Source: Escherichia phage LF82-11
Sequence record: PV660454
Direction: 5' to 3' (one strand)
Length of the DNA: 52,979 nucleotides
In this document: piece by piece, positions 15,727 through 25,983 of the stretch
How positions within the stretch are numbered: position 1 is the first letter of the stretch
How the letters are laid out: the number at the start of each line of letters is the position of its first letter
Position numbers and translations under genes: made by a program
Notes under the pieces: generated by a model
Told to the model about the DNA's origin: nothing
The model's database searches: none
The model's input: only the letters and a program-made list of their open reading frames with translations

Positions 15727-18700
15727 ATGAATAAAAAAGTGTTAGTGCATGGCTCAAAGGGTGGTTCACCAAAGCCGCACACGCCACAGGAAATGGAAGA
15801 CAACTTAATTTCAATCAACAAAATTAAGGTGCTTCTGGCTATTTCTGACGGTGAGATTGATCCTGATTTCAGCCTTAAAGATCTGTATCTCAATGACGTT
15901 CCTGTGCAGTCGAAAGAAGGAACGATGAACTACGATGGCGTGATTGCCGAGTTTAGACCGGGAACGCAAACGCAATCTTACATTCAGGGTTTTACTGACA
16001 CGGCAAGCGAGGTGACTGTAAACCGAGCGCTGAAGCAAGATAACCCTTTCATCTTCCCGGTAACGAACAAAAGCATTTCAGCGGTACGCGTTAAGATCTT
16101 CATGCCTCGCGGCGTAAAGACAGAATCAAATGGAGATATGGTTGGCGTTAGGGTTGAATACGCGATTGATTTCGCGGTTGATGGTGGATCATACCAGGAG
16201 GTTCTTAAGGACGTAATCGACGGTAAGACGATGAGCGGCTACGACAGAACCAAACGGATTAACCTTCCTGAATTCAACGATCAGGTATTGGTGCGCGTGC
16301 GTCGTGTAACGATGGATTCAACAGACGCAAGATTGATTGATGAGATCAGCGTGCAATCATATGCTCAAGTTGTCGATGCTAAATTCCGTTACCCCCTGAC
16401 CGGGCTGTTATACGTTGAGCTGAACAGCGCAATGTTCCCACAAATGCCAAATATCAGCGTCAAGAAAAAATGGAAGCTGGTGAAGGTTCCGAGCAACTAC
16501 GATCCAGTAGCGCGCGAGTATCACGGCACATGGGATGGCAGTTTTAAACAGGCATGGAGCAATAACCCTGCATGGGTGCTTTACGACTTGATCACCAATC
16601 AGAGATACGGACTCGACCAGCGCGAATTAGGGATTGATGTTGATAAGTGGAGCTTGTACGAAGCCGGGCAGTATTGCGATCAGCTCGTGCCGGACGGCAA
16701 AGGCGGAACAGAACCGCGCTACCTGTGCGACGTTGTGATTCAGTCTCAGATTGAAGCGTACACGCTAGTGCGTGATATTTGCTCTATCTTCCGTGGGATG
16801 AGCTTTTGGAACGGTGAAAGCCTATCTATCGTGATTGACAGGCCGCGTGATGCGTCTTACATCTTCACGAATGATAACGTGGTGGGCGGTTCATTCTCCT
16901 ACACGTTCGCCAGTGAAAAGAGCATGTACACAACATGCAACGTGACGTTTGACGATGAGCTGAACATGTACCAGCAGGACGTTGAAGCTGTGTTTGATCT
17001 GGATGCGTCTATTCGATTCGGGCACAACCCGACAAGCATAACGGCGATCGGATGCACGCGACGGAGTGAGGCAAACCGCCGAGGGCGCTGGATTCTGAAA
17101 ACGAACTTGCGCAGCACGACAGTTAGCTTTGCTACCGGGCTTGAAGGTATGATCCCAATGGTGGGCGATGTGATTGCGGTTGCGGATAACTTCTGGCAAA
17201 GCAATCTGACGCTTTCCCTTTCCGGGCGATTGATGGAGGTTTCAGGCATTCAGTGCTTCACTCACTTCCGAGTTGATGCGCGGCCAGGTGATTTCATTAT
17301 CGTTAACAAGCCTGATGGTAAGCCAGTGCGCCGCACGATTGCTAACGTATCAGCAGACGGAAAGACCATTGAACTAAATATCGGCTTCGGCTTTGCGGTT
17401 CAGCCAAACGCGGTATTCGCGATTGACCGTCAAGATCTGGCGCTTCAGCAGTATGTTGTTACCGGAATCAGCAAGGGTGATGGAGACGAGGAGTTTACTT
17501 ACTCGATCACGGCGGTTGAGTACGACCCGAACAAGTATGACGAGATTGATTACGGCGTTAACATCGACGACAGGCCGACGAGCATCATCGACCCTGACAA
17601 CATGCAGCCGCCAGAAAATATCAGCGTTTCGTCATATTCCAGGATCGTGCAGGGCATGAGCGTTGAGACGATGGTTATCGGGTGGGATAAGGCGCAGTAC
17701 GCGAGCACATACGATGTTCAATGGCGCAAGGATAATGGTAACTGGATTAACACTCCACGCACCGCAAACACAGAGGTTGAGGTTGAAGGCATCTATGCTG
17801 GCGTTTACCACGTCCGAGTAAGATCGACTTCAGCGGCTGGTAACTCTTCGCCATGGTCAAGCGTAGTGACGGTGAGCTTAACTGGCAAGGTTGGAAAGCC
17901 AGGAGCGCCGACGAGCATCACGGCGAGCACGGATGAGGTGTTTGGTATTCGCGTTAAGTGGGGTATGCCAGCAGGATCAGAGGACACGGCCTACATCGAG
18001 CTTCACCAGTCGAAAGACGGAACGCCGGACAATGCAAGCCTGTTAACGATGATTCCTTATCCTCAGTTTGAATACTGGCACGCGGTGCTCCCGGCTGGTT
18101 ATGTGAACTGGTATCGGGCGCGAGCAGTTGACCGAATCGGCAACGTCTCTGATTGGTCTGACTTCGCACGCGGCATGGCTTCGGATGATGTGGATCAGAT
18201 TTTGGACGTTATCAAGATTGACATTGAGGACAGCGAGATTTTCAAAGAGCTTGCCGAAAATGCAGTTGATACCGCCAACAAGATCAAAGACCAGGCGCAG
18301 ACGGATATTCAGAACGCATTAGCGAATGACTACAACCTGCAATGGACTCGCAAGCAGAACGGCGCACGTAAGGCCGAATACGGTCAAGCGGTGATTCTCA
18401 TTGCCAATGAGACAGAAGCTCGTGTAGCGGCGATTGAGGAGCTTAGAGCGTCAATCAATGACGATATCATTGCTCAAATCAAAACGATTCGAGAAGCGGT
18501 AGCAAATGAGGAGGAGGCACGAGTTAAGGCGGTTCAGGAGCTTGACGCTAAGTTTGCCGGGCAGATTGGAGACTTGCAGACAGCAACAGAGGCGAGCGTA
18601 TCGCGTCTGGATGAGGCGATCGCAAATGAGTCAGAGGCAAGAACTCAGGCAATTTCACAACTCGATGCGAAGTTCCAGGGCGTCATTGATGGAGTTAAGG

Positions 18701-19278
18701 CCGACACTGAAGCCAGCATTACGCGAGTTGATAAAGCCATTGCTAGCGAGACTCAAGCCAGGGTTGAGGCAGATACAGCGCTTGGTGTTCGGGTTGGTAA
18801 CACTGAATCCGCCATCACGCAAAAGCTTGATTCATGGATTCAGAACGGGCAGCCGGGAGCGTCGTATAACGTCAAGTTGGGTATCAAGTACAACGGGCAG
18901 GAGTATAGCGCAGGGATGGGGATGCAGTTGGTTAGCGATCAGTATGGCGTTAGATCGCAAATCCTGTTTGACGCTGACCGATTCGCAGTTGGCAAGATTG
19001 AGAATGGCTCTATTCGTCAGTTGCCGTTTGTGATTGAGGGTAATCAGGTATTCATTCGTGATGCGCTGATTAAAAACGGCTCCATCACTAACGCAATGAT
19101 CGGAAACGTCATTCAGTCAAACAACTATGTTGCTGGTTGGGCTGGTTGGAGAATGGACAAGAACGGAAACCTTGAGATTAACGGCAGCGCCGGAAACGGA
19201 AGGCTGACCATTAACAACAACATCATTGCCGTATATGATGGTAACGGTGTGTTAAGAGTTCGAATGGGATTGTTCTAA
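15727..19278 (+). CDS. central tail fibre / host specificity protein (lambda gpJ-like)
   Basis: 1183 aa, last gene of tail module. Confidence 0.8.
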   Translation: MNKKVLVHGSKGGSPKPHTPQEMEDNLISINKIKVLLAISDGEIDPDFSLKDLYLNDVPVQSKEGTMNYDGVIAEFRPGTQTQSYIQGFTDTASEVTVNRALKQDNPFIFPVTNKSISAVRVKIFMPRGVKTESNGDMVGVRVEYAIDFAVDGGSYQEVLKDVIDGKTMSGYDRTKRINLPEFNDQVLVRVRRVTMDSTDARLIDEISVQSYAQVVDAKFRYPLTGLLYVELNSAMFPQMPNISVKKKWKLVKVPSNYDPVAREYHGTWDGSFKQAWSNNPAWVLYDLITNQRYGLDQRELGIDVDKWSLYEAGQYCDQLVPDGKGGTEPRYLCDVVIQSQIEAYTLVRDICSIFRGMSFWNGESLSIVIDRPRDASYIFTNDNVVGGSFSYTFASEKSMYTTCNVTFDDELNMYQQDVEAVFDLDASIRFGHNPTSITAIGCTRRSEANRRGRWILKTNLRSTTVSFATGLEGMIPMVGDVIAVADNFWQSNLTLSLSGRLMEVSGIQCFTHFRVDARPGDFIIVNKPDGKPVRRTIANVSADGKTIELNIGFGFAVQPNAVFAIDRQDLALQQYVVTGISKGDGDEEFTYSITAVEYDPNKYDEIDYGVNIDDRPTSIIDPDNMQPPENISVSSYSRIVQGMSVETMVIGWDKAQYASTYDVQWRKDNGNWINTPRTANTEVEVEGIYAGVYHVRVRSTSAAGNSSPWSSVVTVSLTGKVGKPGAPTSITASTDEVFGIRVKWGMPAGSEDTAYIELHQSKDGTPDNASLLTMIPYPQFEYWHAVLPAGYVNWYRARAVDRIGNVSDWSDFARGMASDDVDQILDVIKIDIEDSEIFKELAENAVDTANKIKDQAQTDIQNALANDYNLQWTRKQNGARKAEYGQAVILIANETEARVAAIEELRASINDDIIAQIKTIREAVANEEEARVKAVQELDAKFAGQIGDLQTATEASVSRLDEAIANESEARTQAISQLDAKFQGVIDGVKADTEASITRVDKAIASETQARVEADTALGVRVGNTESAITQKLDSWIQNGQPGASYNVKLGIKYNGQEYSAGMGMQLVSDQYGVRSQILFDADRFAVGKIENGSIRQLPFVIEGNQVFIRDALIKNGSITNAMIGNVIQSNNYVAGWAGWRMDKNGNLEINGSAGNGRLTINNNIIAVYDGNGVLRVRMGLF

Positions 19279-19283
19279 TAGAA

Positions 19284-19312
19284 AAGGGAGCCTTGCGGCT
19301 CCCTCTTTTTTT
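19284..19312. terminator. bidirectional terminator
   Basis: GGGAGCC-ttgc-GGCTCCC flanked by T-runs on both strands; between convergent genes. Confidence 0.5.
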
Positions 19313-19643
19313 ACATCACTTTATTGTAGATAACCGGGCTTCGGCTGGTTTGCTGGGTAATCATGTCAAGCTTGTATTCAGCGCCGCGATTCCACTCGAA
19401 GCGTAGCGTATAAGTGTTTACGTCGCCGTAGCACATTACGTGTTTGAACTTGCGCAGGTGCTTATCAAATATCACGTTTGTGCTTTCTTCAATATTCACC
19501 GTCCGATCCTGGCAGTTTACAACCGCCACGGTTGAGCCAGTAAGAGACATTCTGGAAGCGTCAACCGGATATCCGATATTAACGTTCAAAGCCATAGCGT
19601 TTAAAGGAGCTAAGAGAGCCATAGCGAGCATGATTTTTTCCAT
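19311..19643 (-). CDS. secreted/periplasmic small protein (signal peptide)
   Basis: N-terminus MEKIMLAMALLAPLNAMA with AMA cleavage-type site; start moved to ATG 19643 with GAGGAA RBS (track start is TTG). Confidence 0.4.
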   Translation of the reverse strand: MEKIMLAMALLAPLNAMALNVNIGYPVDASRMSLTGSTVAVVNCQDRTVNIEESTNVIFDKHLRKFKHVMCYGDVNTYTLRFEWNRGAEYKLDMITQQTSRSPVIYNKVM

Positions 19644-19717
19644 TGGTGTTTCCTCGATTCGTTTATTTAAATTGATTATATCCACCAATCAGGGCGCGTG
19701 CTTAGCAATTCGTGCTA

Positions 19718-20368
19718 TTAGTTCCACCCAAGGAATCGAGCCATTGGAATCTTTAGGTTTCCGCGACCGTTGAAAATATCATTAAACCCTCGCTGATTTC
19801 GTCTGATCCATGTAGTCTGCAACTCCGAGCCAGTCCAGCGCATGAGGTTGCCAGAGTAACCAGAGGCAACGCCATCCGTTGACATTTCACCCATGCAGGA
19901 CTCCCACAGAAAGAATGGGTTGTAACCAGGTGATACGCTGGCAACGTTACCCTCAAGAGGCCAATTCCCGGCAACCTCAAGGAAGCCAGTTACACGAGGC
20001 ATTGAGGCAGCGCCCAAAGCAGACCAGATCAGTTGCCCGGAACCGTCGAACACGTCAAGCACGCCAGATGGAAAGTTTGCGTTTCTGGTTGTCCTGATCA
20101 CGCGGATTGAGTTTGGTAGGAACATATCAGATCCCGGAAACCCCCACGCGCCGTTAGAAAGAAATTGCACCCAATGCAAATATCCGTCTTGCTTCCTCGT
20201 GTTTTGGTTTAGGTAAGCCAGTGAGCTTATGTTGCCAAAAGGTGTGTTTAGGTTGTAGTCACCAGTATTTAAATATGACGGGTTGAAAGATGAGTGGTAG
20301 ATCGTGTGTTTCTGATCTGAGTTAATCATCATCGCCCCGGCGTTATTGTATACCTCAAAACCAGGCAT
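19718..20368 (-). CDS. Asn/Gly/Ser/aromatic-rich protein, paralogue of downstream gene
   Basis: 216 aa starting MPGFEVYNNAG; internal DGSGQLI; good RBS. Confidence 0.4.
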   Translation of the reverse strand: MPGFEVYNNAGAMMINSDQKHTIYHSSFNPSYLNTGDYNLNTPFGNISSLAYLNQNTRKQDGYLHWVQFLSNGAWGFPGSDMFLPNSIRVIRTTRNANFPSGVLDVFDGSGQLIWSALGAASMPRVTGFLEVAGNWPLEGNVASVSPGYNPFFLWESCMGEMSTDGVASGYSGNLMRWTGSELQTTWIRRNQRGFNDIFNGRGNLKIPMARFLGWN

Positions 20369-20377
20369 ATTGCCCCC

Positions 20378-20677
20378 TCAGTTAAATTTGTAAATTTCGA
20401 TATCCATCGTCACATCGTTAAACGGGTTGCTTGTTGGTAGGTAGATAACATCAACAGCATTCTCACGCGTTACGCAAGCGTAAGCACTCCCTATGTAGAT
20501 GTTTGCGTATTTGATGCAAGCAAACGAGTTGTAACCGTTTATTCCGACAACAGCAAAAGACACGATCGAAGTCGAGCGCGGGAACACGATTTGCTGACGA
20601 TGCACAAAGCGAGTGCTGAAATCTCCGAGATCCACAATCAGATTTCCCGACCCATCCCATGCTTGTAAACCAGGCAT
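20378..20677 (-). CDS. hypothetical protein, paralogous N-terminus
   Basis: 99 aa starting MPGLQAWDGSGNLI; near-identical RBS/start context to 19718..20368. Confidence 0.4.
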   Translation of the reverse strand: MPGLQAWDGSGNLIVDLGDFSTRFVHRQQIVFPRSTSIVSFAVVGINGYNSFACIKYANIYIGSAYACVTRENAVDVIYLPTSNPFNDVTMDIEIYKFN

Positions 20678-20795
20678 AATGCCACCTCGTGAGTTTGTTT
20701 GATTGAGTGCAAATAATACACCAGCGAGCAGACAAAATCAAAGTCAACATGTCGTTCCTGTAGTTAGCTGTTAAGAAAATCACTTTCCGGCGATT

Positions 20796-21031
20796 TCGAT
20801 ACACGCAACTACAGAAAACTACAGCGTTATACATTGCGTAAGTATATATATAATAAGGGTTTATCTAATATTATTATTATTACTATATTCATGTTGTAGT
20901 TAGTGTAACGGTATCGTTTGGTGATTCCCGGATATCTTTTCGAATAGTTGAGTTAATTGTGTGGTTATTAGGATGCCGATACCTGGCTACCCCTCCGCAA
21001 TCCGCGTTAAAATCGATACACGCAACTACAG
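20796..21031. repeat. iteron-like repeats in AT-rich intergenic region
   Basis: 19-bp direct repeat TCGATACACGCAACTACAG at about 20796 and 21013; AACTACAG/CTGTAGTT copies in both orientations. Confidence 0.5.
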
Positions 21032-21116
21032 TCAGCATTCATGCGGGTTTGAAGGGTGTTTTTTGTAACGAATGCCATTATCGACAAAAAATAACACTAA
21101 CGACACGTTATATATT

Positions 21117-21144
21117 TGACAAAGCGAATGAACCGCGTATACTC
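21117..21144 (+). promoter_or_regulatory. sigma70-like promoter for recombination genes
   Basis: TTGACA, 16-bp spacer, TATACT. Confidence 0.45.
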
Positions 21145-21176
21145 AGCCACATCAACCACAACTGAGGAATAAAGTG

Positions 21177-22232
21177 ATGAATCCAACAAGACCTGAATCA
21201 GATTTTTTCTGGTTCACCAGCGATGAAATGCCGAACGATTTTTACCACGACAAAGAGGCATGGACTTTTGATTTCGTATCAGGCTCCAGCCTTTGCGACA
21301 TTCACCAATCGTCACCCGCTTCATGGTTCTTCGCCAAAAACGAGATCACAAAGGCGCTTGAGTTTGGTACTCAGTCACACACCAACTTTGAATCGAAGTC
21401 GCTGTTTGATGCAACGTATCGACGCGCACCAGCCCCGGAAGACTTCGAAAACTTGATTACGTCTCAGGCAGCGCTGGCTACGAAGTTGAAATCATTCGGC
21501 CTGACTGGTACAAGCGGGAAGCAATATCCAGAGCTGATCAAAATGATGGTTGATTGCGGTGAAGATCTTAACGTGTTGTGGCTTATTGATATGATCGCAC
21601 AGTGCCAGGCTTGGGCTGATGGCGTTGAGTTGGTCAAGGCTGAGGATTACGACAAGTGCAAGATGATGCGCGCCGTTCTGGAATCAGTGCCGGAATACGC
21701 AATGATGATGGAAAGCCCAACGGCAATGCACGAGCTTTCATTGTTCGGAAAGATCAGCGGCGTTGACGTAAAAGTCAGACTTGACTACGTTGACACGGTT
21801 ACTGATCCAAACCTCATTCGTCATTTTGGGTACGATCCAGAGCTACACCCTGAAATCATTGTGATTATGGACTACAAAACGACGAGCAGCGCCAACCCGG
21901 CAGATTTTGACCGAAAGGCATTCGATCTTGGGTATTATCTGAAGATGGCATTGCAGCGTGATTTATTCGTCAAAGTGTACGATGAGAAGCGCCCCGTTTG
22001 CTTGGTTCTGCTTACACAGGAAAAGAAAGAGCCATTCTTGCCACTTGGAAGGCCAATGACGCGCGAGCAGCTTCTTTTAGGCCGCAAGCAGTATATGGGT
22101 GTCATTCACACTTACTCGATCTGCAAGGAATCAAACGTTTGGCCTGGCTATGCAAACGGCGCTCCTTTCGTTAGCCTTGAAACGCCTGACTACATCAAGC
22201 GCCAGCATAAGGATATTTTCGGCGGAGAGTAA
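21177..22232 (+). CDS. PD-(D/E)xK-type exonuclease (recombination)
   Basis: IVIMDYKTT D-x-K motif; ATG 21177 with GAGGAA RBS (track start 21174 is GTG). Confidence 0.5.
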   Translation: MNPTRPESDFFWFTSDEMPNDFYHDKEAWTFDFVSGSSLCDIHQSSPASWFFAKNEITKALEFGTQSHTNFESKSLFDATYRRAPAPEDFENLITSQAALATKLKSFGLTGTSGKQYPELIKMMVDCGEDLNVLWLIDMIAQCQAWADGVELVKAEDYDKCKMMRAVLESVPEYAMMMESPTAMHELSLFGKISGVDVKVRLDYVDTVTDPNLIRHFGYDPELHPEIIVIMDYKTTSSANPADFDRKAFDLGYYLKMALQRDLFVKVYDEKRPVCLVLLTQEKKEPFLPLGRPMTREQLLLGRKQYMGVIHTYSICKESNVWPGYANGAPFVSLETPDYIKRQHKDIFGGE

Positions 22233-23507: not shown

Positions 23508-23535
23508 ATAAAGGAGCCTTTCGGCTCCTTTTTTA
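23508..23535. terminator. bidirectional terminator
   Basis: GGAGCC-tttc-GGCTCC with T-runs on both strands; between convergent ssb and tail fibre. Confidence 0.5.
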
Positions 23536-25983
23536 TTTCAGCAATAACGACTCAAGTTTAGCAAGGCGCTCTTCCATTTCCTCCATTCTGTTACCCATGT
23601 AAACCATAGCACAGGCCATATCAGTAAGCATGACGTTTGAATCAAGAGCTAGCGTATCGTCCTTAAATCCAGTCTCGATCTGCCTGGCAACGTACTCCTC
23701 ACCATTCTCGTTGACTCCGATAACATCTTCAAAGATCGGAGCGCCAGGGACTACTTTCACATACTGACTATCAACTTTATTCAAGTCCTGAGCAATCAGA
23801 CCGAATCTCTGTGTGTCAGATCCCTTATACTTGAACATGGTTGGGAGCCACTGCATTACGCGATCATAGCTCTCCTTTCCTTCGGTGTATTTGATATCCC
23901 ACTTAAGATCCCGGTCAGACGTTGGCGCTTTCTGGAATGTATACCCCCCATCCCATCCTCCACCCTGACCCCATGAGATAATATCTGATGATGGTGCATG
24001 GAATTCAAATCCGCGATGGTACGCACCATCACCAAGCATCTTAATTACTGCGCGAGGCCATCCGTTGTTCCCGCTAGAAATCATACCAAGAGAGGTATTC
24101 ATTCGATACCCGCCAGTTGATGTGGTTGCCCCTGAGATCAATGAAGCATATCCGGCATCATTACCCGTTACATCACCAGCAAAGAACGTACTCCCCATGT
24201 AATCATTTGGCTGCGCCCAACCTCCTTGAGTTAACTTACCAAGAAACCCCCTTGGAGAAGATATGTGACCGCCGTATGAGTTTATGAATTTAAACTCCTT
24301 CCAGTCACTTCCTTGGTTGTTCACTCCGATCTTGAAGTGATCAATATCAGTGCCACTACCGCGAACCCCCCCAATCTGCCAGTAACCAGAGTACCAGTTA
24401 CCTTGAACCAGGTTAACCCAACTATTAACAGAGCCATCACCAGCAGCGTTTTGAATCAGGATGTTTTTGTTTCCGCCACTCTGAGTTGAAACAACGATCG
24501 ATTTACCCTGCTTTGCCTCTACGTTTCCGTTTGTTGCAACCAGAGCGCCGCCGCTAATCGTTCCGACGGCTGTCAGCGATGCAACTCCGGTAATGTTCCC
24601 CGCCTCATCAAACTGATAGTAGTTCCCCTTTCCTCCAGCCGTGTTTGCCGTGTGAATCGTTGTCTTTACAACGCCGCCTTGTAGTTCATTGTAAAATCTT
24701 GAGTTTGATTGCAGCGTTGCGCCGTCAGCAGAAAGCCTTTTACTCTCAATCAGCCCCCCACTAGTTGCTGAGCCAAGTGTTGTAGCCTCCACGCCTCCAA
24801 ATCTCACCGCTTGACCCGAGCCGATACCAAGATTGTTTCTTGCTCCGTCAGCAGTTGTTGATCCAGTGCCACCAGATCCGATAGGGATCGGGATTACATT
24901 TCCGTTACTATCCTGCCACTGGAAAATCCCATCATCGCCAATCGTCAGCCTTTTTGTTCTATCTGGCGTGCTAATGTAGTTACGCGTTCCAATGTGGCGC
25001 AGCCAGTCAAGATCAAGGTTCGTCCTCGCGGCTTGTACGTCAGTAAGATCAGATAGGTTATTTGCCTTCTTTAGCTGTTCGTCAGGGTTAGCCGTTGCTG
25101 CGCGGTCTGCTTCAGCCTTGGCTCGTGCTGCATCGTCACGAGCGGCGGCGGCAGATTGCCCGGCGCTGGTTTCGCTGTTTGCTGCATTCGTCTCGCTTAC
25201 CCTGGCGGCATCCTTGCTGGCTCCGGCTTGGGTTGCGGCAACTTCGGCGGCTTGACGATGCGCGGCAGCTTCGCCGTTAGATTGAGCGGCTGAGCTTGCG
25301 CTATTACCCGCATTTGTCTCGCTAGTCTTCGCATTGAATGCAGAATCGGCGGCAGCGTTCTTTGCGCTTGTTGCGGTTGCAGCGTCAGCGGCGGAGCTAG
25401 ATGCAGATGCGGCAGCGGCGTTTTTATCTTGCTGTGCAGACTGAGCAGATCCGGCGGCGGAGGTCGCAGCAGCCTCAGCGGCAACGCGTTGCTGATAAGC
25501 TTGCTGGTTCTGGCTTCCGGCCTCGCTTGCACTTTGTGCGGCGGCGTTCTTGCTTGCCTCAGCTTCGTTTGCGTTAACTTCAGTACGATCAGCATCAACG
25601 CGAACGGCAGACTGAAGATCTTTCAGCTCTTGCAGGTTAAAGTTCTTGAAGAAATCCATAGCCTCCTCGATCACAGTTTCCTTGCTTTGGTAGTAGCGCA
25701 GAGTTTCAGCCACATCTTGAGCAAGGCCATCAACAGTGATTGAGTCATGCAGCAGGATTACATAGTTCGTACCATCCGGCACAACTGCATCATCCGTTTG
25801 GATCGCTCGCATTTCCGTGTCACTCACGATCGCGGAAATAGTAACCAGCGTTAGTGGTTGAGTTAAAAACACCATCGTTGCCCCAACGCGAATCAGAGAC
25901 AGCTTGTCTTGCCATTTCGTATCAACGCCAGTTACAACGCCGTTAGCGGCCAATCCCGCCGTTCCTCTACGATAAATCGCCAT
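23533..25983 (-). CDS. tail fibre with C-terminal intramolecular chaperone (peptidase S74-like) domain
   Basis: long Ala/Ser-rich low-complexity stretch; C-terminal region typical of autoproteolytic chaperone domain; start at ATG 25983 with AGAGGTG RBS (track start GTG 25992). Confidence 0.65.
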   Translation of the reverse strand: MAIYRRGTAGLAANGVVTGVDTKWQDKLSLIRVGATMVFLTQPLTLVTISAIVSDTEMRAIQTDDAVVPDGTNYVILLHDSITVDGLAQDVAETLRYYQSKETVIEEAMDFFKNFNLQELKDLQSAVRVDADRTEVNANEAEASKNAAAQSASEAGSQNQQAYQQRVAAEAAATSAAGSAQSAQQDKNAAAASASSSAADAATATSAKNAAADSAFNAKTSETNAGNSASSAAQSNGEAAAHRQAAEVAATQAGASKDAARVSETNAANSETSAGQSAAAARDDAARAKAEADRAATANPDEQLKKANNLSDLTDVQAARTNLDLDWLRHIGTRNYISTPDRTKRLTIGDDGIFQWQDSNGNVIPIPIGSGGTGSTTADGARNNLGIGSGQAVRFGGVEATTLGSATSGGLIESKRLSADGATLQSNSRFYNELQGGVVKTTIHTANTAGGKGNYYQFDEAGNITGVASLTAVGTISGGALVATNGNVEAKQGKSIVVSTQSGGNKNILIQNAAGDGSVNSWVNLVQGNWYSGYWQIGGVRGSGTDIDHFKIGVNNQGSDWKEFKFINSYGGHISSPRGFLGKLTQGGWAQPNDYMGSTFFAGDVTGNDAGYASLISGATTSTGGYRMNTSLGMISSGNNGWPRAVIKMLGDGAYHRGFEFHAPSSDIISWGQGGGWDGGYTFQKAPTSDRDLKWDIKYTEGKESYDRVMQWLPTMFKYKGSDTQRFGLIAQDLNKVDSQYVKVVPGAPIFEDVIGVNENGEEYVARQIETGFKDDTLALDSNVMLTDMACAMVYMGNRMEEMEERLAKLESLLLK

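Follow-up and report, generated by a model that had tools for sequence, protein, structure and literature searches.

A probable YncD-type receptor-recognition and exclusion cassette in Escherichia phage LF82-11, with a candidate TonB-like exclusion protein

YncD is a TonB-dependent outer membrane transporter of Escherichia coli. In the Drexlerviridae, receptor-specificity (RBP) loci downstream of gpJ were defined by Maffei et al. in 2021 (PMC8594841), who listed YncD as the receptor of phages Bas10 and Bas11 (S5 table) and cited it as the reported receptor of IME347. A preprint (10.64898/2026.04.02.716166) has since described AF3 models of YncD with the locus RBP (CDS_0024), with ipTM values of 0.78 to 0.83, that put the RBP on the outer face of YncD; the gene number does not single out one cassette protein, because GenBank numbering differs between Bas10 and Bas11. 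Both studies assign the locus to YncD and leave one or two “accessory proteins” without characterization; what has been published for the YncD allele is a locus-to-receptor correlation and an in silico RBP. Llp and Rtp45 are periplasmic exclusion proteins whose genes lie beside RBP genes (for Rtp45, see PMC12685063). The YncD-, FhuA-, and LptD-type RBP sets were handled as unrelated in a recent preprint. Receptor cassettes of small siphophages serve host-range prediction and re-engineering.

We analyzed a window of 52,979 nucleotides from Escherichia phage LF82-11 (PV660454). The genomes of LF82-12 and LF82-40 match this window with 100% identity, and the phage is a T1-like member of the Drexlerviridae. 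The original prediction described a minus-strand trio of genes downstream of a J-like gene and convergent with the tail operon. An open reading frame (ORF) scan and the coding sequences (CDSs) of PV660455, in which exactly the same three are annotated, bear this out. The third ORF (19311-19688) encodes 125 amino acids (aa) from a TTG start or 110 aa from ATG 19643. The prediction had moved the start to the ATG, and this was correct: the GenBank CDS begins there, and an alignment shows that Bas11, Bas10, and IME347 have retained this ATG together with the GAGGA ribosome-binding site that belongs to it. Features of the locus are as follows.

15727-19278, plus strand: J-like central tail fiber/tail-tip protein, 1183 aa (ORF; “tail protein” in GenBank)
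19225-19260, plus strand: C-terminal hairpin motif of J, IAVYDGNGVLRV, residues 1167 to 1178 (regex scan; alignment of J C termini)
19285-19304, no strand assigned: GC-rich hairpin AGGGAGCC-TTGC-GGCTCCCT with an A run and a T run on its flanks (flagged on the plus strand by a terminator scan)
19311-19643, minus strand: gene for the 110-aa exported protein, mature part ~92 aa (ORF, GenBank, alignments, co-occurrence with the 216-aa family)
19590-19643, minus strand: signal peptide of the 110-aa protein, residues 1 to 18, MEKIMLAMALLAPLNAMA, with a signal peptidase I cut predicted after AMA (alignments, hydropathy)
19644-19717, minus strand: 74-bp gap from the 216-aa gene to the 110-aa gene, with conserved GCACGAATTGCTAA ... 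TATAAT and a ribosome-binding site (four-phage alignment)
19718-20368, minus strand: 216-aa two-domain beta-rich protein, phrog_4524, precomputed Pfam PF28254 (family searches, AF2 model)
20024-20065, minus strand: hairpin motif repeated internally, GVLDVFDGSGQLIW, residues 102 to 115, where the second domain of the 216-aa protein begins (BLASTP, profile comparison, regex scan)
20378-20677, minus strand: 99-aa protein, phrog_7961 (family searches, neighborhoods, profile comparison)
20678-21176, no strand assigned: AT-rich intergenic region from which the trio and the exonuclease VIII gene diverge (sequence)

The three genes lie on one strand and are probably expressed as a single transcript, whose promoter we presume to lie in the AT-rich region upstream of the 99-aa gene; in a promoter scan of 19100-21300, promoter-like sites were no commoner than in shuffled sequences. 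The 74-bp gap may hold an internal promoter, judging from its conserved elements; it was not among the sites called in the scan. The hairpin at 19285-19304 separates the J-like gene from the trio. On the minus strand it reads as a stem followed by TTTTCTATT, and it is probably a bidirectional terminator for both the tail operon and the trio. The 99-aa and 216-aa genes do have near-identical ribosome-binding contexts, as had been noted: GAGGKGGCAWTATGCCTGG was found exactly twice in the window, both times at the starts of these genes, and in 0 of 100 shuffles, a check that is partly circular because the pattern came from those same two sites.

We compared the trio with the loci of YncD-dependent phages. 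All three genes have homologues in Bas11, Bas10, and IME347. Trio DNA is 84% identical to that of Bas11, with unchanged gene order, and protein identities to Bas11 are 85% (99 aa), 90% (216 aa), and 89% (110 aa); they range from 60 to 85% for Bas10 and from 49 to 67% for IME347. The trio is flanked by the J-like gene on one side and by recombination genes on the other, in the order J (15727-19278), trio (19311-20677), exonuclease VIII (21177-22232), which is the position of an RBP locus downstream of gpJ. By homology and position, this is a locus of a known kind, the “RBP locus downstream of gpJ” of small siphoviruses, in the allele of Bas10, Bas11, and IME347. In RB-TnSeq data, yncD is the top hit for Bas10 and also for Bas11. 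We infer from these cassette homologues that YncD would be the receptor of LF82-11 too, with the qualification that its host, LF82, differs from K-12. Temperate relatives have their 99-like and 216-like genes behind J within the tail operon, and their 110-like gene runs convergently and encodes a lipoprotein, a layout that parallels the J-ST32-ST31/cor order of phage T1. We conclude, with a probability of roughly 60%, that the trio is a receptor-recognition and exclusion cassette of the YncD type, as carried by T1-like and related siphophages, and that it includes a TonB-like exclusion protein that acts on YncD. The suggestion of host-range accessory, adhesin, or exclusion functions thus pointed in the right direction, given that the locus is a receptor-specificity locus of the type defined in PMC8594841 with a likely RBP and a likely secreted exclusion factor; the TonB likeness was not foreseen.

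The 216-aa protein is probably the RBP for YncD. Its AF2 model (pLDDT, 84; pTM, 0.80) has a solved, protein-binding RBP as its best structural match, the protein has neither a signal peptide nor a transmembrane segment, and 216-like genes sit inside the tail operons of HK639, KW1E_UTAR, Diencephalon, and Presley. Searches of Pfam, NCBIfam, and PADLOC with the three window proteins gave nothing above threshold, and a PDB sequence search with the 216-aa protein gave no meaningful match. The pair had been called Asn/Gly rich; this description suits the 216-aa protein (N+G, 22.2%, against a window background of 11.1%), whereas the enrichment is only mild in the 99-aa protein (15.2%). A carbohydrate-binding role, also proposed for the pair, is not supported, given the need of phages with this allele for the YncD protein and a best structural match that binds protein.

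The 99-aa protein is probably a tail-tip adaptor or second subunit. In all loci examined, a 99-like gene directly precedes the 216-like one, and in HK639 its start overlaps the J stop codon. Its N-terminal 24 residues are nearly invariant, and it has neither a signal peptide nor a transmembrane segment. A different assignment was assumed by the authors of the KanT1 paper, namely that such proteins are non-virion, membrane-associated partners of the exclusion gene. The PHROG labels of T1 ST32 and ST31 (“outer membrane protein” as well as “membrane associated protein”) and the placement of the trio on one strand, probably in one transcript, are consistent with that assignment. However, signal peptides and transmembrane segments are absent from all four proteins (99-aa, 216-aa, ST32, and ST31), and the pair is bordered in HK639, KW1E_UTAR, Diencephalon, and Presley by the J-like or giant tail gene on one side and additional tail fiber genes on the other, with one start overlapping the J stop. 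Since, in addition, a solved RBP gives the best structural match and the AF3 models have the locus RBP at the outer face of YncD, we consider a non-virion role for the pair very improbable.

The 99-aa and 216-aa proteins had been described as paralogues that arose by local duplication. Paralogy of the whole proteins was rejected as unproven: BLASTP gave an E value of 1.7, and the first hhalign runs gave probabilities of 4 to 7%. Similarity is limited to an N-terminal module of ~15 to 33 aa, which became detectable only once broader alignments were used and which also ends protein J. The description is therefore borne out in part only: profile comparison picks up the N-terminal ~33 residues (P = 1.7e-4; probability, 50%) and an 11- to 12-residue hairpin motif. 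HK639 provides a bridge, in that phrog_2427 matches both residues 1 to 48 of the 99-like protein (1e-8) and residues 102 to 177 of the 216-like protein (5e-4). This short module recurs at the J C terminus and in the T1 and Rtp counterparts, and a recent local duplication is not supported. The common N-terminal motif (MPG-x7-G/DGSGxLI) proved inexact: the 99-aa protein has DGSGNLI from residue 8, but in the 216-aa protein DGSGQLI stands at residues 108 to 114 and the N terminus reads MPGFEVYNNAGAMMI. Covariation of the J C terminus with cassette type was also considered and was rejected, since the C-terminal 120 aa of J are kept across phages with YncD-, FhuA-, and LptD-type cassettes. The hairpin common to the J C terminus, the 99-aa and 216-aa proteins, T1 ST32 and ST31, and Rtp44 suggests a shared docking rule, which, if real, would aid cassette-swap design.

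We infer that the 110-aa protein is a superinfection-exclusion or receptor-masking factor for YncD. The cleavable signal peptide in the original prediction is supported by alignments and hydropathy, which show MEK, a hydrophobic core at residues 4 to 14, and a cleavage site between NAMA and LN. The protein is not a lipoprotein, because no Cys precedes residue 44; Cys 44 and Cys 71 are invariant. Across 43 of 43 phage records, the 110-aa family never occurs without the 216-aa family, and its gene adjoins the RBP gene in Drexlerviridae and HK639-type phages. Among 1.84 billion proteins, an HMM search picked up lipoprotein and C-terminal-fusion variants. Lipoprotein relatives occur in HK639 (LVAGC), P0051, P0053, and P0060, and in temperate phages the 110-like gene occupies the position that cor has in T1; phages of the KW1E_UTAR type have the domain as a fusion to a larger protein whose gene is distant from the RBP genes. 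A PDB sequence search with the 110-aa profile gave no meaningful match.

The mature 110-aa protein appears to resemble the C-terminal domain of TonB, with a predicted beta(2)-alpha-beta fold that a disulfide would stabilize. An hhalign comparison with 70 enterobacterial TonB C-terminal domains gave a P value of 5e-4 over 51 columns; the score was 25.2, and the maximum among 300 column-permuted controls was 21.5. Pfam TonB_C scored 12.8 to 13.2 bits (cutoff, 24.6) in three distant family members only and matched neither the window protein nor 14 close family members. The sole NCBIfam match of the HK639 homologue is the TonB equivalog NF008082, which aligns residues 28 to 88 with TonB residues 168 to 232 (E value, 0.029; 14.2 bits against a curated threshold of 265). 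The curated TonB family thresholds (PF03544 and NF008082) were thus not reached in any case. The AF2 model is mediocre (pLDDT, 62.5), a Foldseek search of the PDB with this model gave nothing significant and had no TonB among the best 50 matches, and BLASTP gave no alignment of the HK639 homologue with E. coli TonB. The HMM search with the 110-aa family did not retrieve genuine TonB.

A tentative reading of these signals, possible but short of an even chance, is that the 110-aa family is a free-standing, phage-encoded mimic of the TonB C-terminal domain that seizes the TonB box of YncD and so switches the receptor off from the periplasm. Such a mimic would be soluble in virulent T1-like phages, lipid anchored in temperate phages, and membrane tethered in a third group. 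Because tonB is not a fitness hit for Bas10 or Bas11 in RB-TnSeq, mere competition with TonB would not itself stop these phages, and exclusion by that route alone is weakened. The protein might instead exclude through YncD in the manner of Llp and Cor, as a periplasmic wedge on the plug or barrel that changes the extracellular loops allosterically, the TonB appearance being a coincidence of a small alpha/beta fold or a modeling artifact. Its genomic position, its co-occurrence with the 216-aa family, the lipoproteins among its relatives, and a conserved pair of Cys residues like that of Llp and Rtp45 would all fit this mode, as would the low pLDDT, the Foldseek result, and the dispensability of tonB for Bas10 and Bas11. 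Against it stands the agreement of independent, if weak, TonB signals (structure, Pfam, NCBIfam, and the permutation-controlled profile comparison), and we regard it as rather unlikely.

A TonB C-terminal-domain likeness could also mean a general dominant-negative mimic, which would occupy the TonB boxes of many transporters and block TonB-dependent uptake, phages, and colicins. Howard et al. reportedly found in 2001 that periplasmic TonB fragments inhibit TonB-dependent transport and phi80 infection, and some FhuA-dependent T1-like phages (Bas03) need tonB. However, the 110-aa gene is tied to one RBP family in all 43 records, and FhuA- and BtuB-type cassettes have Cor/Llp-type genes in its place, which together argue for receptor-specific action. 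Moreover, lysogens with the lipoprotein version would pay for a total block of iron uptake. We therefore consider general interference with TonB doubtful, more so than an Llp/Cor-like mode.

We propose that an LF82-11-type cassette would work as follows. The 99-aa and 216-aa proteins would be made in the cytoplasm and attach to the virion at the J trimer's C-terminal end, with J presumably serving as the platform, and each would dock through its own conserved N-terminal hairpin, a motif with which J closes as well. The 216-aa protein would bind the extracellular face of YncD, leading to irreversible adsorption, with the 99-aa protein as an adaptor or second subunit. The 110-aa protein would be exported by Sec, cleaved after AMA, and folded into a disulfide-stabilized beta(2)-alpha-beta domain resembling the TonB C-terminal domain. 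It would dock on YncD from the periplasmic side, perhaps with one of its strands paired to the TonB box, and YncD so occupied would no longer support binding or DNA delivery. The infected cell would be guarded against superinfection, and progeny would not be wasted on debris. If a TonB-domain mimic does inactivate the transporter, it would be a new structural solution to superinfection exclusion beside Llp/Cor and Rtp45. It would also provide, from a natural gene, a probe or inhibitor for the TonB-box interface, a proposed antibacterial target. Lysogens or infected cells might then resist therapeutic phages that use the same receptor.

Besides the Bas10, Bas11, and IME347 locus, a described system of similar architecture is the FhuA cassette of T1, N15, HK022, and phi80, with ST32 (101 aa), ST31 (229 aa), and cor. 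In both, J is followed by three parts, namely proteins of ~100 and ~220 aa plus a gene for a small exported exclusion protein; the orientation of the FhuA cassette matches the HK639 version of the YncD-type cassette, and the hairpin motif lies at the same places (both N termini and residue ~105 to 115 of the larger protein). The families differ, T1 ST32 and ST31 being phrog_557 and phrog_425 and the window pair being phrog_7961 and phrog_4524, and between the T1/N15 proteins and the window pair there is no significant full-length similarity; hhalign finds the hairpin motif only. The 110-aa protein has in common with Cor, Llp, and Rtp45 that it is small and exported and that its gene lies beside, and is inherited with, the cognate RBP gene. 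Cor, however, is a 75-aa lipoprotein related to Llp, whereas the 110-aa protein is larger, has another predicted fold, and in this phage is unlipidated, with a signal peptidase I site rather than a lipobox; it has no sequence or fold similarity to Cor or Llp.

The LptD cassette of Rtp and Oekolampad (PMC12685063) consists of an RBP (Rtp44 or RBP_Oeko; PDB 9rpt) and the exclusion lipoprotein Rtp45. It shares with the window the minus strand, the site between J and exonuclease VIII, and the co-orientation of the RBP and exclusion genes, and Rtp45 acts from the periplasm, as proposed for the 110-aa protein, and has an internal disulfide. In contrast, sequence identity is 6%, there are two genes rather than three, and Rtp45 is a ~6-kDa lipoprotein whose hairpin enters the lumen of LptD, which is not a TonB-dependent transporter. 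For the idea that Rtp44 fuses the small protein to the large one, there is suggestive motif spacing only (hhalign P, 0.05 to 0.24). The YncD-, FhuA-, and LptD-type RBP sets may be versions of one modular three-domain tip, split into 99 plus 216 aa here and fused into 311 aa in Rtp44.

With the TonB C-terminal domain (PF03544; E. coli TonB residues ~150 to 239), the 110-aa protein appears to share the beta(2)-alpha-beta topology predicted for it, a YPxxAxxxxxxG motif, and a periplasmic location (predicted for the 110-aa protein), and the alignment spans beta1, beta2, the helix, and an aromatic residue beyond. The Cys pair and a conserved tail, DMIATQTSR, are found only in the 110-aa protein. 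It is not a full TonB: at 110 aa, with a cleavable signal, it lacks the N-terminal inner membrane anchor and the proline-rich spacer and therefore cannot transduce energy. Our literature search found neither a study of YncD-cassette proteins nor a phage exclusion protein resembling TonB. The 99-aa and 110-aa proteins are given new roles in this proposal, and, if the TonB-mimic reading holds, exclusion through the transporter's own energy-coupling interface would be a mechanism without earlier description.

The window was 100% identical to the complete genome of Escherichia phage LF82-12/LF82-40 (PV660455/PV660462, 52,979 bp), which is virulent, T1-like, and assigned to a new Drexlerviridae genus (PMC12509680). 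The original prediction had placed three minus-strand genes downstream of the J-like gene. All three were present as described and correspond to three GenBank coding sequences annotated as hypothetical proteins:

20378-20677, minus strand, 99-aa ORF (ORF scan and GenBank CDS)
19718-20368, minus strand, 216-aa ORF (ORF scan and GenBank CDS)
19644-19717, minus strand, 74-bp gap separating the 216-aa gene from the 110-aa gene (alignment of four phages)
19311-19643, minus strand, 110-aa ORF from ATG (ORF scan and GenBank CDS); an upstream TTG at 19688 would yield 125 aa

The ATG chosen for the 110-aa gene is also the GenBank start and, together with a GAGGA ribosome-binding site, is kept in the related phages Bas11, Bas10, and IME347. 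The start contexts of the 99-aa and 216-aa genes are indeed similar; both fit GAGGKGGCAWTATGCCTGG, a pattern with no further copy in the window. The trio and the J-like gene (1183 aa) are convergent, and a GC-rich hairpin with A/T runs on either side lies between them (19285-19304). The trio shares a 500-bp AT-rich upstream region with the divergent exonuclease VIII gene; a promoter scan of this region found promoter-like matches no more often than in shuffled sequence. The intergenic sequence (20680-21170) is of low complexity and very AT rich (e.g., AATAATAATAATATTAGATAAA and TATATATATAC), with little conservation among related phages except for short blocks. In the 74-bp gap, four phages that otherwise differ share an invariant GCACGAATTGCTAA followed by TATAAT or TATACT; the Bas10 and IME347 versions also have a GC-rich hairpin.

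Drexlerviridae and related small siphoviruses have “bona fide RBP loci” immediately 3′ of gpJ, whose alleles track the terminal receptor and which are thought to encode a receptor-binding protein (RBP) attached non-covalently to J and a cognate superinfection-exclusion protein (Maffei et al., PMC8594841). The trio DNA was 84% identical to its counterpart in Bas11 (JohannLBurckhardt). Similarities of the 99-aa, 216-aa, and 110-aa proteins were 85%, 90%, and 89% for Bas11; 64%, 60%, and 85-86% (mature part) for Bas10 (IsaakIselin); and 49%, 67%, and 58-59% (mature part) for IME347. The terminal receptor of Bas10 and Bas11 is YncD (PMC8594841, S5 table), and the same paper cites IME347 as a YncD phage. 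Moreover, yncD was the top RB-TnSeq hit for both Bas10 and Bas11, and AlphaFold3 models of YncD with the locus RBP gave ipTM values of 0.78-0.83 (10.64898/2026.04.02.716166). We conclude, with a probability of about 85%, that the trio is the cassette of a YncD-type RBP locus. Since the same kind of locus and its alleles have been published for YncD phages, the locus type and the YncD link are already known, and the trio in the window adds another instance. A literature search returned no published function for any of the three cassette proteins.

Which protein corresponds to the RBP of the preprint (10.64898/2026.04.02.716166) was judged by its identity and coverage criterion (>30% identity and >99% coverage, including temperate phage Eeyore/NpA), and gene numbers could not confirm the 216-aa protein; the 216-aa family gave 45% identity and 99% coverage, whereas the fit was poorer for the 99-aa family, at 28% identity, and for the 110-aa family, at 72% coverage. 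The 216-aa protein is, with good probability, the RBP of the cassette. Its AF2 model, built from a 21-sequence alignment, has two beta-rich domains (pLDDT, 84.3; pTM, 0.80) and is confident except at residues 1-19, the conserved N-terminal hairpin, and in a dip at residues 100-120. The family is most variable at residues ~25-60 and 95-145 and most conserved in the final 55 residues; no signal peptide or transmembrane segment was found in the protein. All database homologues of the 216-aa protein (19718-20368) carry a precomputed accession of a recent Pfam family, PF28254.1.

The 99-aa and 216-aa proteins had been described as Asn/Gly-rich paralogues arising from a local duplication. The composition holds for the 216-aa protein (22.2%, against a background of 11.1%) and only mildly for the 99-aa protein (15.2%). 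Paralogy of the whole proteins was too strong a claim (BLASTP E value, 1.7). When the two families were aligned with hhalign (~20-30 homologues per alignment), only the first ~33 residues matched (P = 1.7e-4; probability, 50%), together with a hairpin motif of 11 to 12 residues, roughly Φ-x-Φ-[WFY]-[DN]-x-x-G-x-[LM]-x-Φ, which occurs as follows:

99-aa protein, residues 4-15
216-aa protein, residues 4-15 and 104-115, with a looser copy at 198-205
J, residues 1167-1178 (window 19225-19260, plus strand), 12 residues before the J end

Of the 10 loose motif matches across all six frames of the window, these three proteins account for five. A transitive link was also found in the temperate coliphage HK639, where phrog_2427 matched residues 1-48 of the 99-like protein (1e-8) and residues 102-177 of the 216-like protein (5e-4). 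Because BLASTP similarity is weak and the resemblance is restricted to the N-terminal module and the motif, the alignments argue for a shared, reused module, perhaps with an ancient domain duplication besides, and not for a recent duplication of genes. The 99-aa and 216-aa proteins might also together be a three-module RBP divided in two, comparable to Rtp44 of phage Rtp, a possibility without statistical support from hhalign (P = 0.05 to 0.24).

The 99-aa gene lies immediately 5′ of the RBP gene in each locus examined. The first 24 residues of its product are near-invariant in the family (G3, L4, Q5, A6, W7, D8, G11, L13, V15, D16, G18, D19, F20, S21, T22, R23, and F24), and the remainder is variable. 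J ends in the same hairpin, the N terminus of the 216-aa RBP is disordered in its single-protein model, and no export signal was found in the 99-aa protein. It is simplest to suppose that both proteins attach to the C-terminal sheet of the J trimer through their N-terminal hairpins, either by docking on the sheet or by extending it, which would make the 99-aa protein an adaptor or second tip subunit.

Among 50,697 phage records searched with tblastn, the 216-aa family was found in 58, the 99-aa family in 47, and the 110-aa family in 43. All 43 of the last group, whose hosts are without exception Escherichia or Klebsiella, also hold the 216-aa family. The pair of small and large genes is far more widespread than the 110-aa gene. 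It lies 3′ of a J-like or giant tail gene in Cronobacter phage SG01 (where the small ORF is not annotated), Klebsiella phage Diencephalon, HK639, KW1E_UTAR, and Presley, an N4-like Acinetobacter podovirus (L092:4181-5175, immediately after the giant tail gene and with the same N-terminal motifs). In Pantoea phage TacPo2, the pair is 3′ of a tRNA cluster and not of a tail gene. Pairs with these N-terminal motifs and no 110-aa gene were seen in Klebsiella, Pantoea, and Cronobacter phages (L093:4173-5133, L091:4202-5151, and L090:4214-5160). Three of these phages, HK639, KW1E_UTAR, and Diencephalon, have the pair within the tail operon, co-stranded with J and with a tail-fibre gene next in order; HK639_24 overlaps the stop codon of J. 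Such a placement is the signature of virion genes. The temperate form of the cassette is rare among sequenced E. coli: an HK639-type prophage cassette was present in 3 of 5,426 complete genomes, all three of swine origin.

As predicted originally, the 110-aa protein has a cleavable signal peptide, a typical Sec signal made up of MEK, a hydrophobic core (residues 4-14), and predicted cleavage between NAMA and LN. It lacks a lipobox; two cysteines, Cys44 and Cys71, are invariant across its family. The 74-bp gap 5′ of its gene could act as an internal promoter or regulatory site through which the exported protein would be expressed separately. The HK639-type relative is convergent and separately transcribed, an unannotated 120-aa ORF on the minus strand (L003:5607-5969; HK639 record ~23535-23897) with a classical lipobox, MKLLFAAALLLVAGC (LVAGC). 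This ORF and the RBP-like gene HK639_25 are convergent, and the ORF overlaps HK639_26, which is annotated; its E. coli prophage equivalent (L094:3107-3469) is called by PGAP as hypothetical. In KW1E_UTAR-, KLB22-, and KLB16-type phages, the domain forms the C-terminal ~85 aa of a 196- to 271-aa protein (~257 aa in the KW1E_UTAR type), encoded ~28 kb from the RBP genes (QYA57179, L008:2482-3252; also P0056-P0058 and P0061). These fusion proteins have a conserved, cytoplasmic-looking N-terminal part and a hydrophobic segment with an AxA-like site at its end. Given its export signal, the strict linkage to the RBP family, the lipoprotein relatives, and the cor-like position in temperate phages, the 110-aa protein probably serves in superinfection exclusion or receptor masking, by analogy with Cor, Llp, and Rtp45, which act on their receptors at the periplasmic face (PMC9586334, PMC12685063). 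Membership in those families was considered and rejected, since the protein falls outside them.

An AF2 model of the 110-aa protein is moderate (pLDDT, 62.5; ~75-85 for core residues 30-85), with the order short helix, beta, beta, alpha, beta, beta, and Foldseek found no significant match to it in the PDB. Pfam TonB_C matched three distant family members over the YPxxAxRxSLxG segment (E values, 0.13-0.17; model positions 2-27), and close members alone gave no such match. The sole NCBIfam match of the HK639 homologue was the TonB equivalog NF008082 (residues 28-88 against TonB 168-232 of 242; E value, 0.029). For a family named beforehand, these library-wide E values amount to p values of roughly 1e-5 to 1e-6 per family. 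An hhalign comparison of the 23-member family alignment with E. coli TonB gave P = 6e-4. Against 70 enterobacterial TonB C-terminal domains, hhalign gave P = 5e-4 (score, 25.2; 51 columns), in an alignment that starts at the YP motif, continues through beta1, beta2, and the helix, and ends at the invariant Cys-Tyr, which lies opposite Arg-Tyr of TonB. By comparison, 300 column-permuted TonB alignments scored 10.4 ± 2.1 (maximum, 21.5), and the score of the reversed alignment was 13.8. All TonB signals were below curated thresholds, and an exhaustive HMM search with the family retrieved no genuine TonB. A mediocre model and sub-threshold sequence signals that agree with one another suggest that the protein probably has a TonB-like fold.

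YncD is a TonB-dependent transporter, and TonB pairs with a TonB box. A domain in the periplasm with the shape of the TonB region responsible for this pairing would be well suited to recognizing the periplasmic face of such a receptor. The 110-aa protein could bind YncD on the periplasmic side; binding at the TonB box in particular is possible but rather doubtful. Such binding might lock the plug and loops of YncD or distort them, so that the 216-aa RBP could no longer bind or trigger DNA delivery. In RB-TnSeq, tonB was a fitness hit for the FhuA phage Bas03 but not for Bas10 or Bas11 (10.64898/2026.04.02.716166). Plain competition with TonB would therefore not stop Bas10 or Bas11; an allosteric or steric effect, as in Llp and Rtp45, is more likely. 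From computation only, two proposals go beyond the literature searched: an exported TonB-like protein with soluble, lipid-anchored, and membrane-tethered forms, and a docking-hairpin architecture common to J and to YncD-, FhuA-, and LptD-type tip proteins.

The cassette of the FhuA phage T1 has the same architecture, with J (ST33) followed by ST32 (101 aa), ST31 (229 aa), and a convergent cor. Wietzorrek et al., as cited in PMC13164509, tied this cassette to FhuA use in T1, N15, HK022, ES18, and phi80. ST32 begins with MAYGISTWDANG, and ST31 begins with MSYGAFIDVNGN and has GMAIWDASGKLVL at residue 112; thus, the hairpin motif occurs at the same three places as in the YncD cassette. In the LptD phage Rtp, rtp45, encoding an exclusion lipoprotein, and rtp44, encoding the RBP (311 aa; L006:26752-27687), take up the same minus-strand position, with J on one side and exonuclease VIII on the other. 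Strands similar to the hairpin lie near residues 3, 114, and 209 of Rtp44, and its N terminus carries the similar strand MAQGIYIDLNDG.
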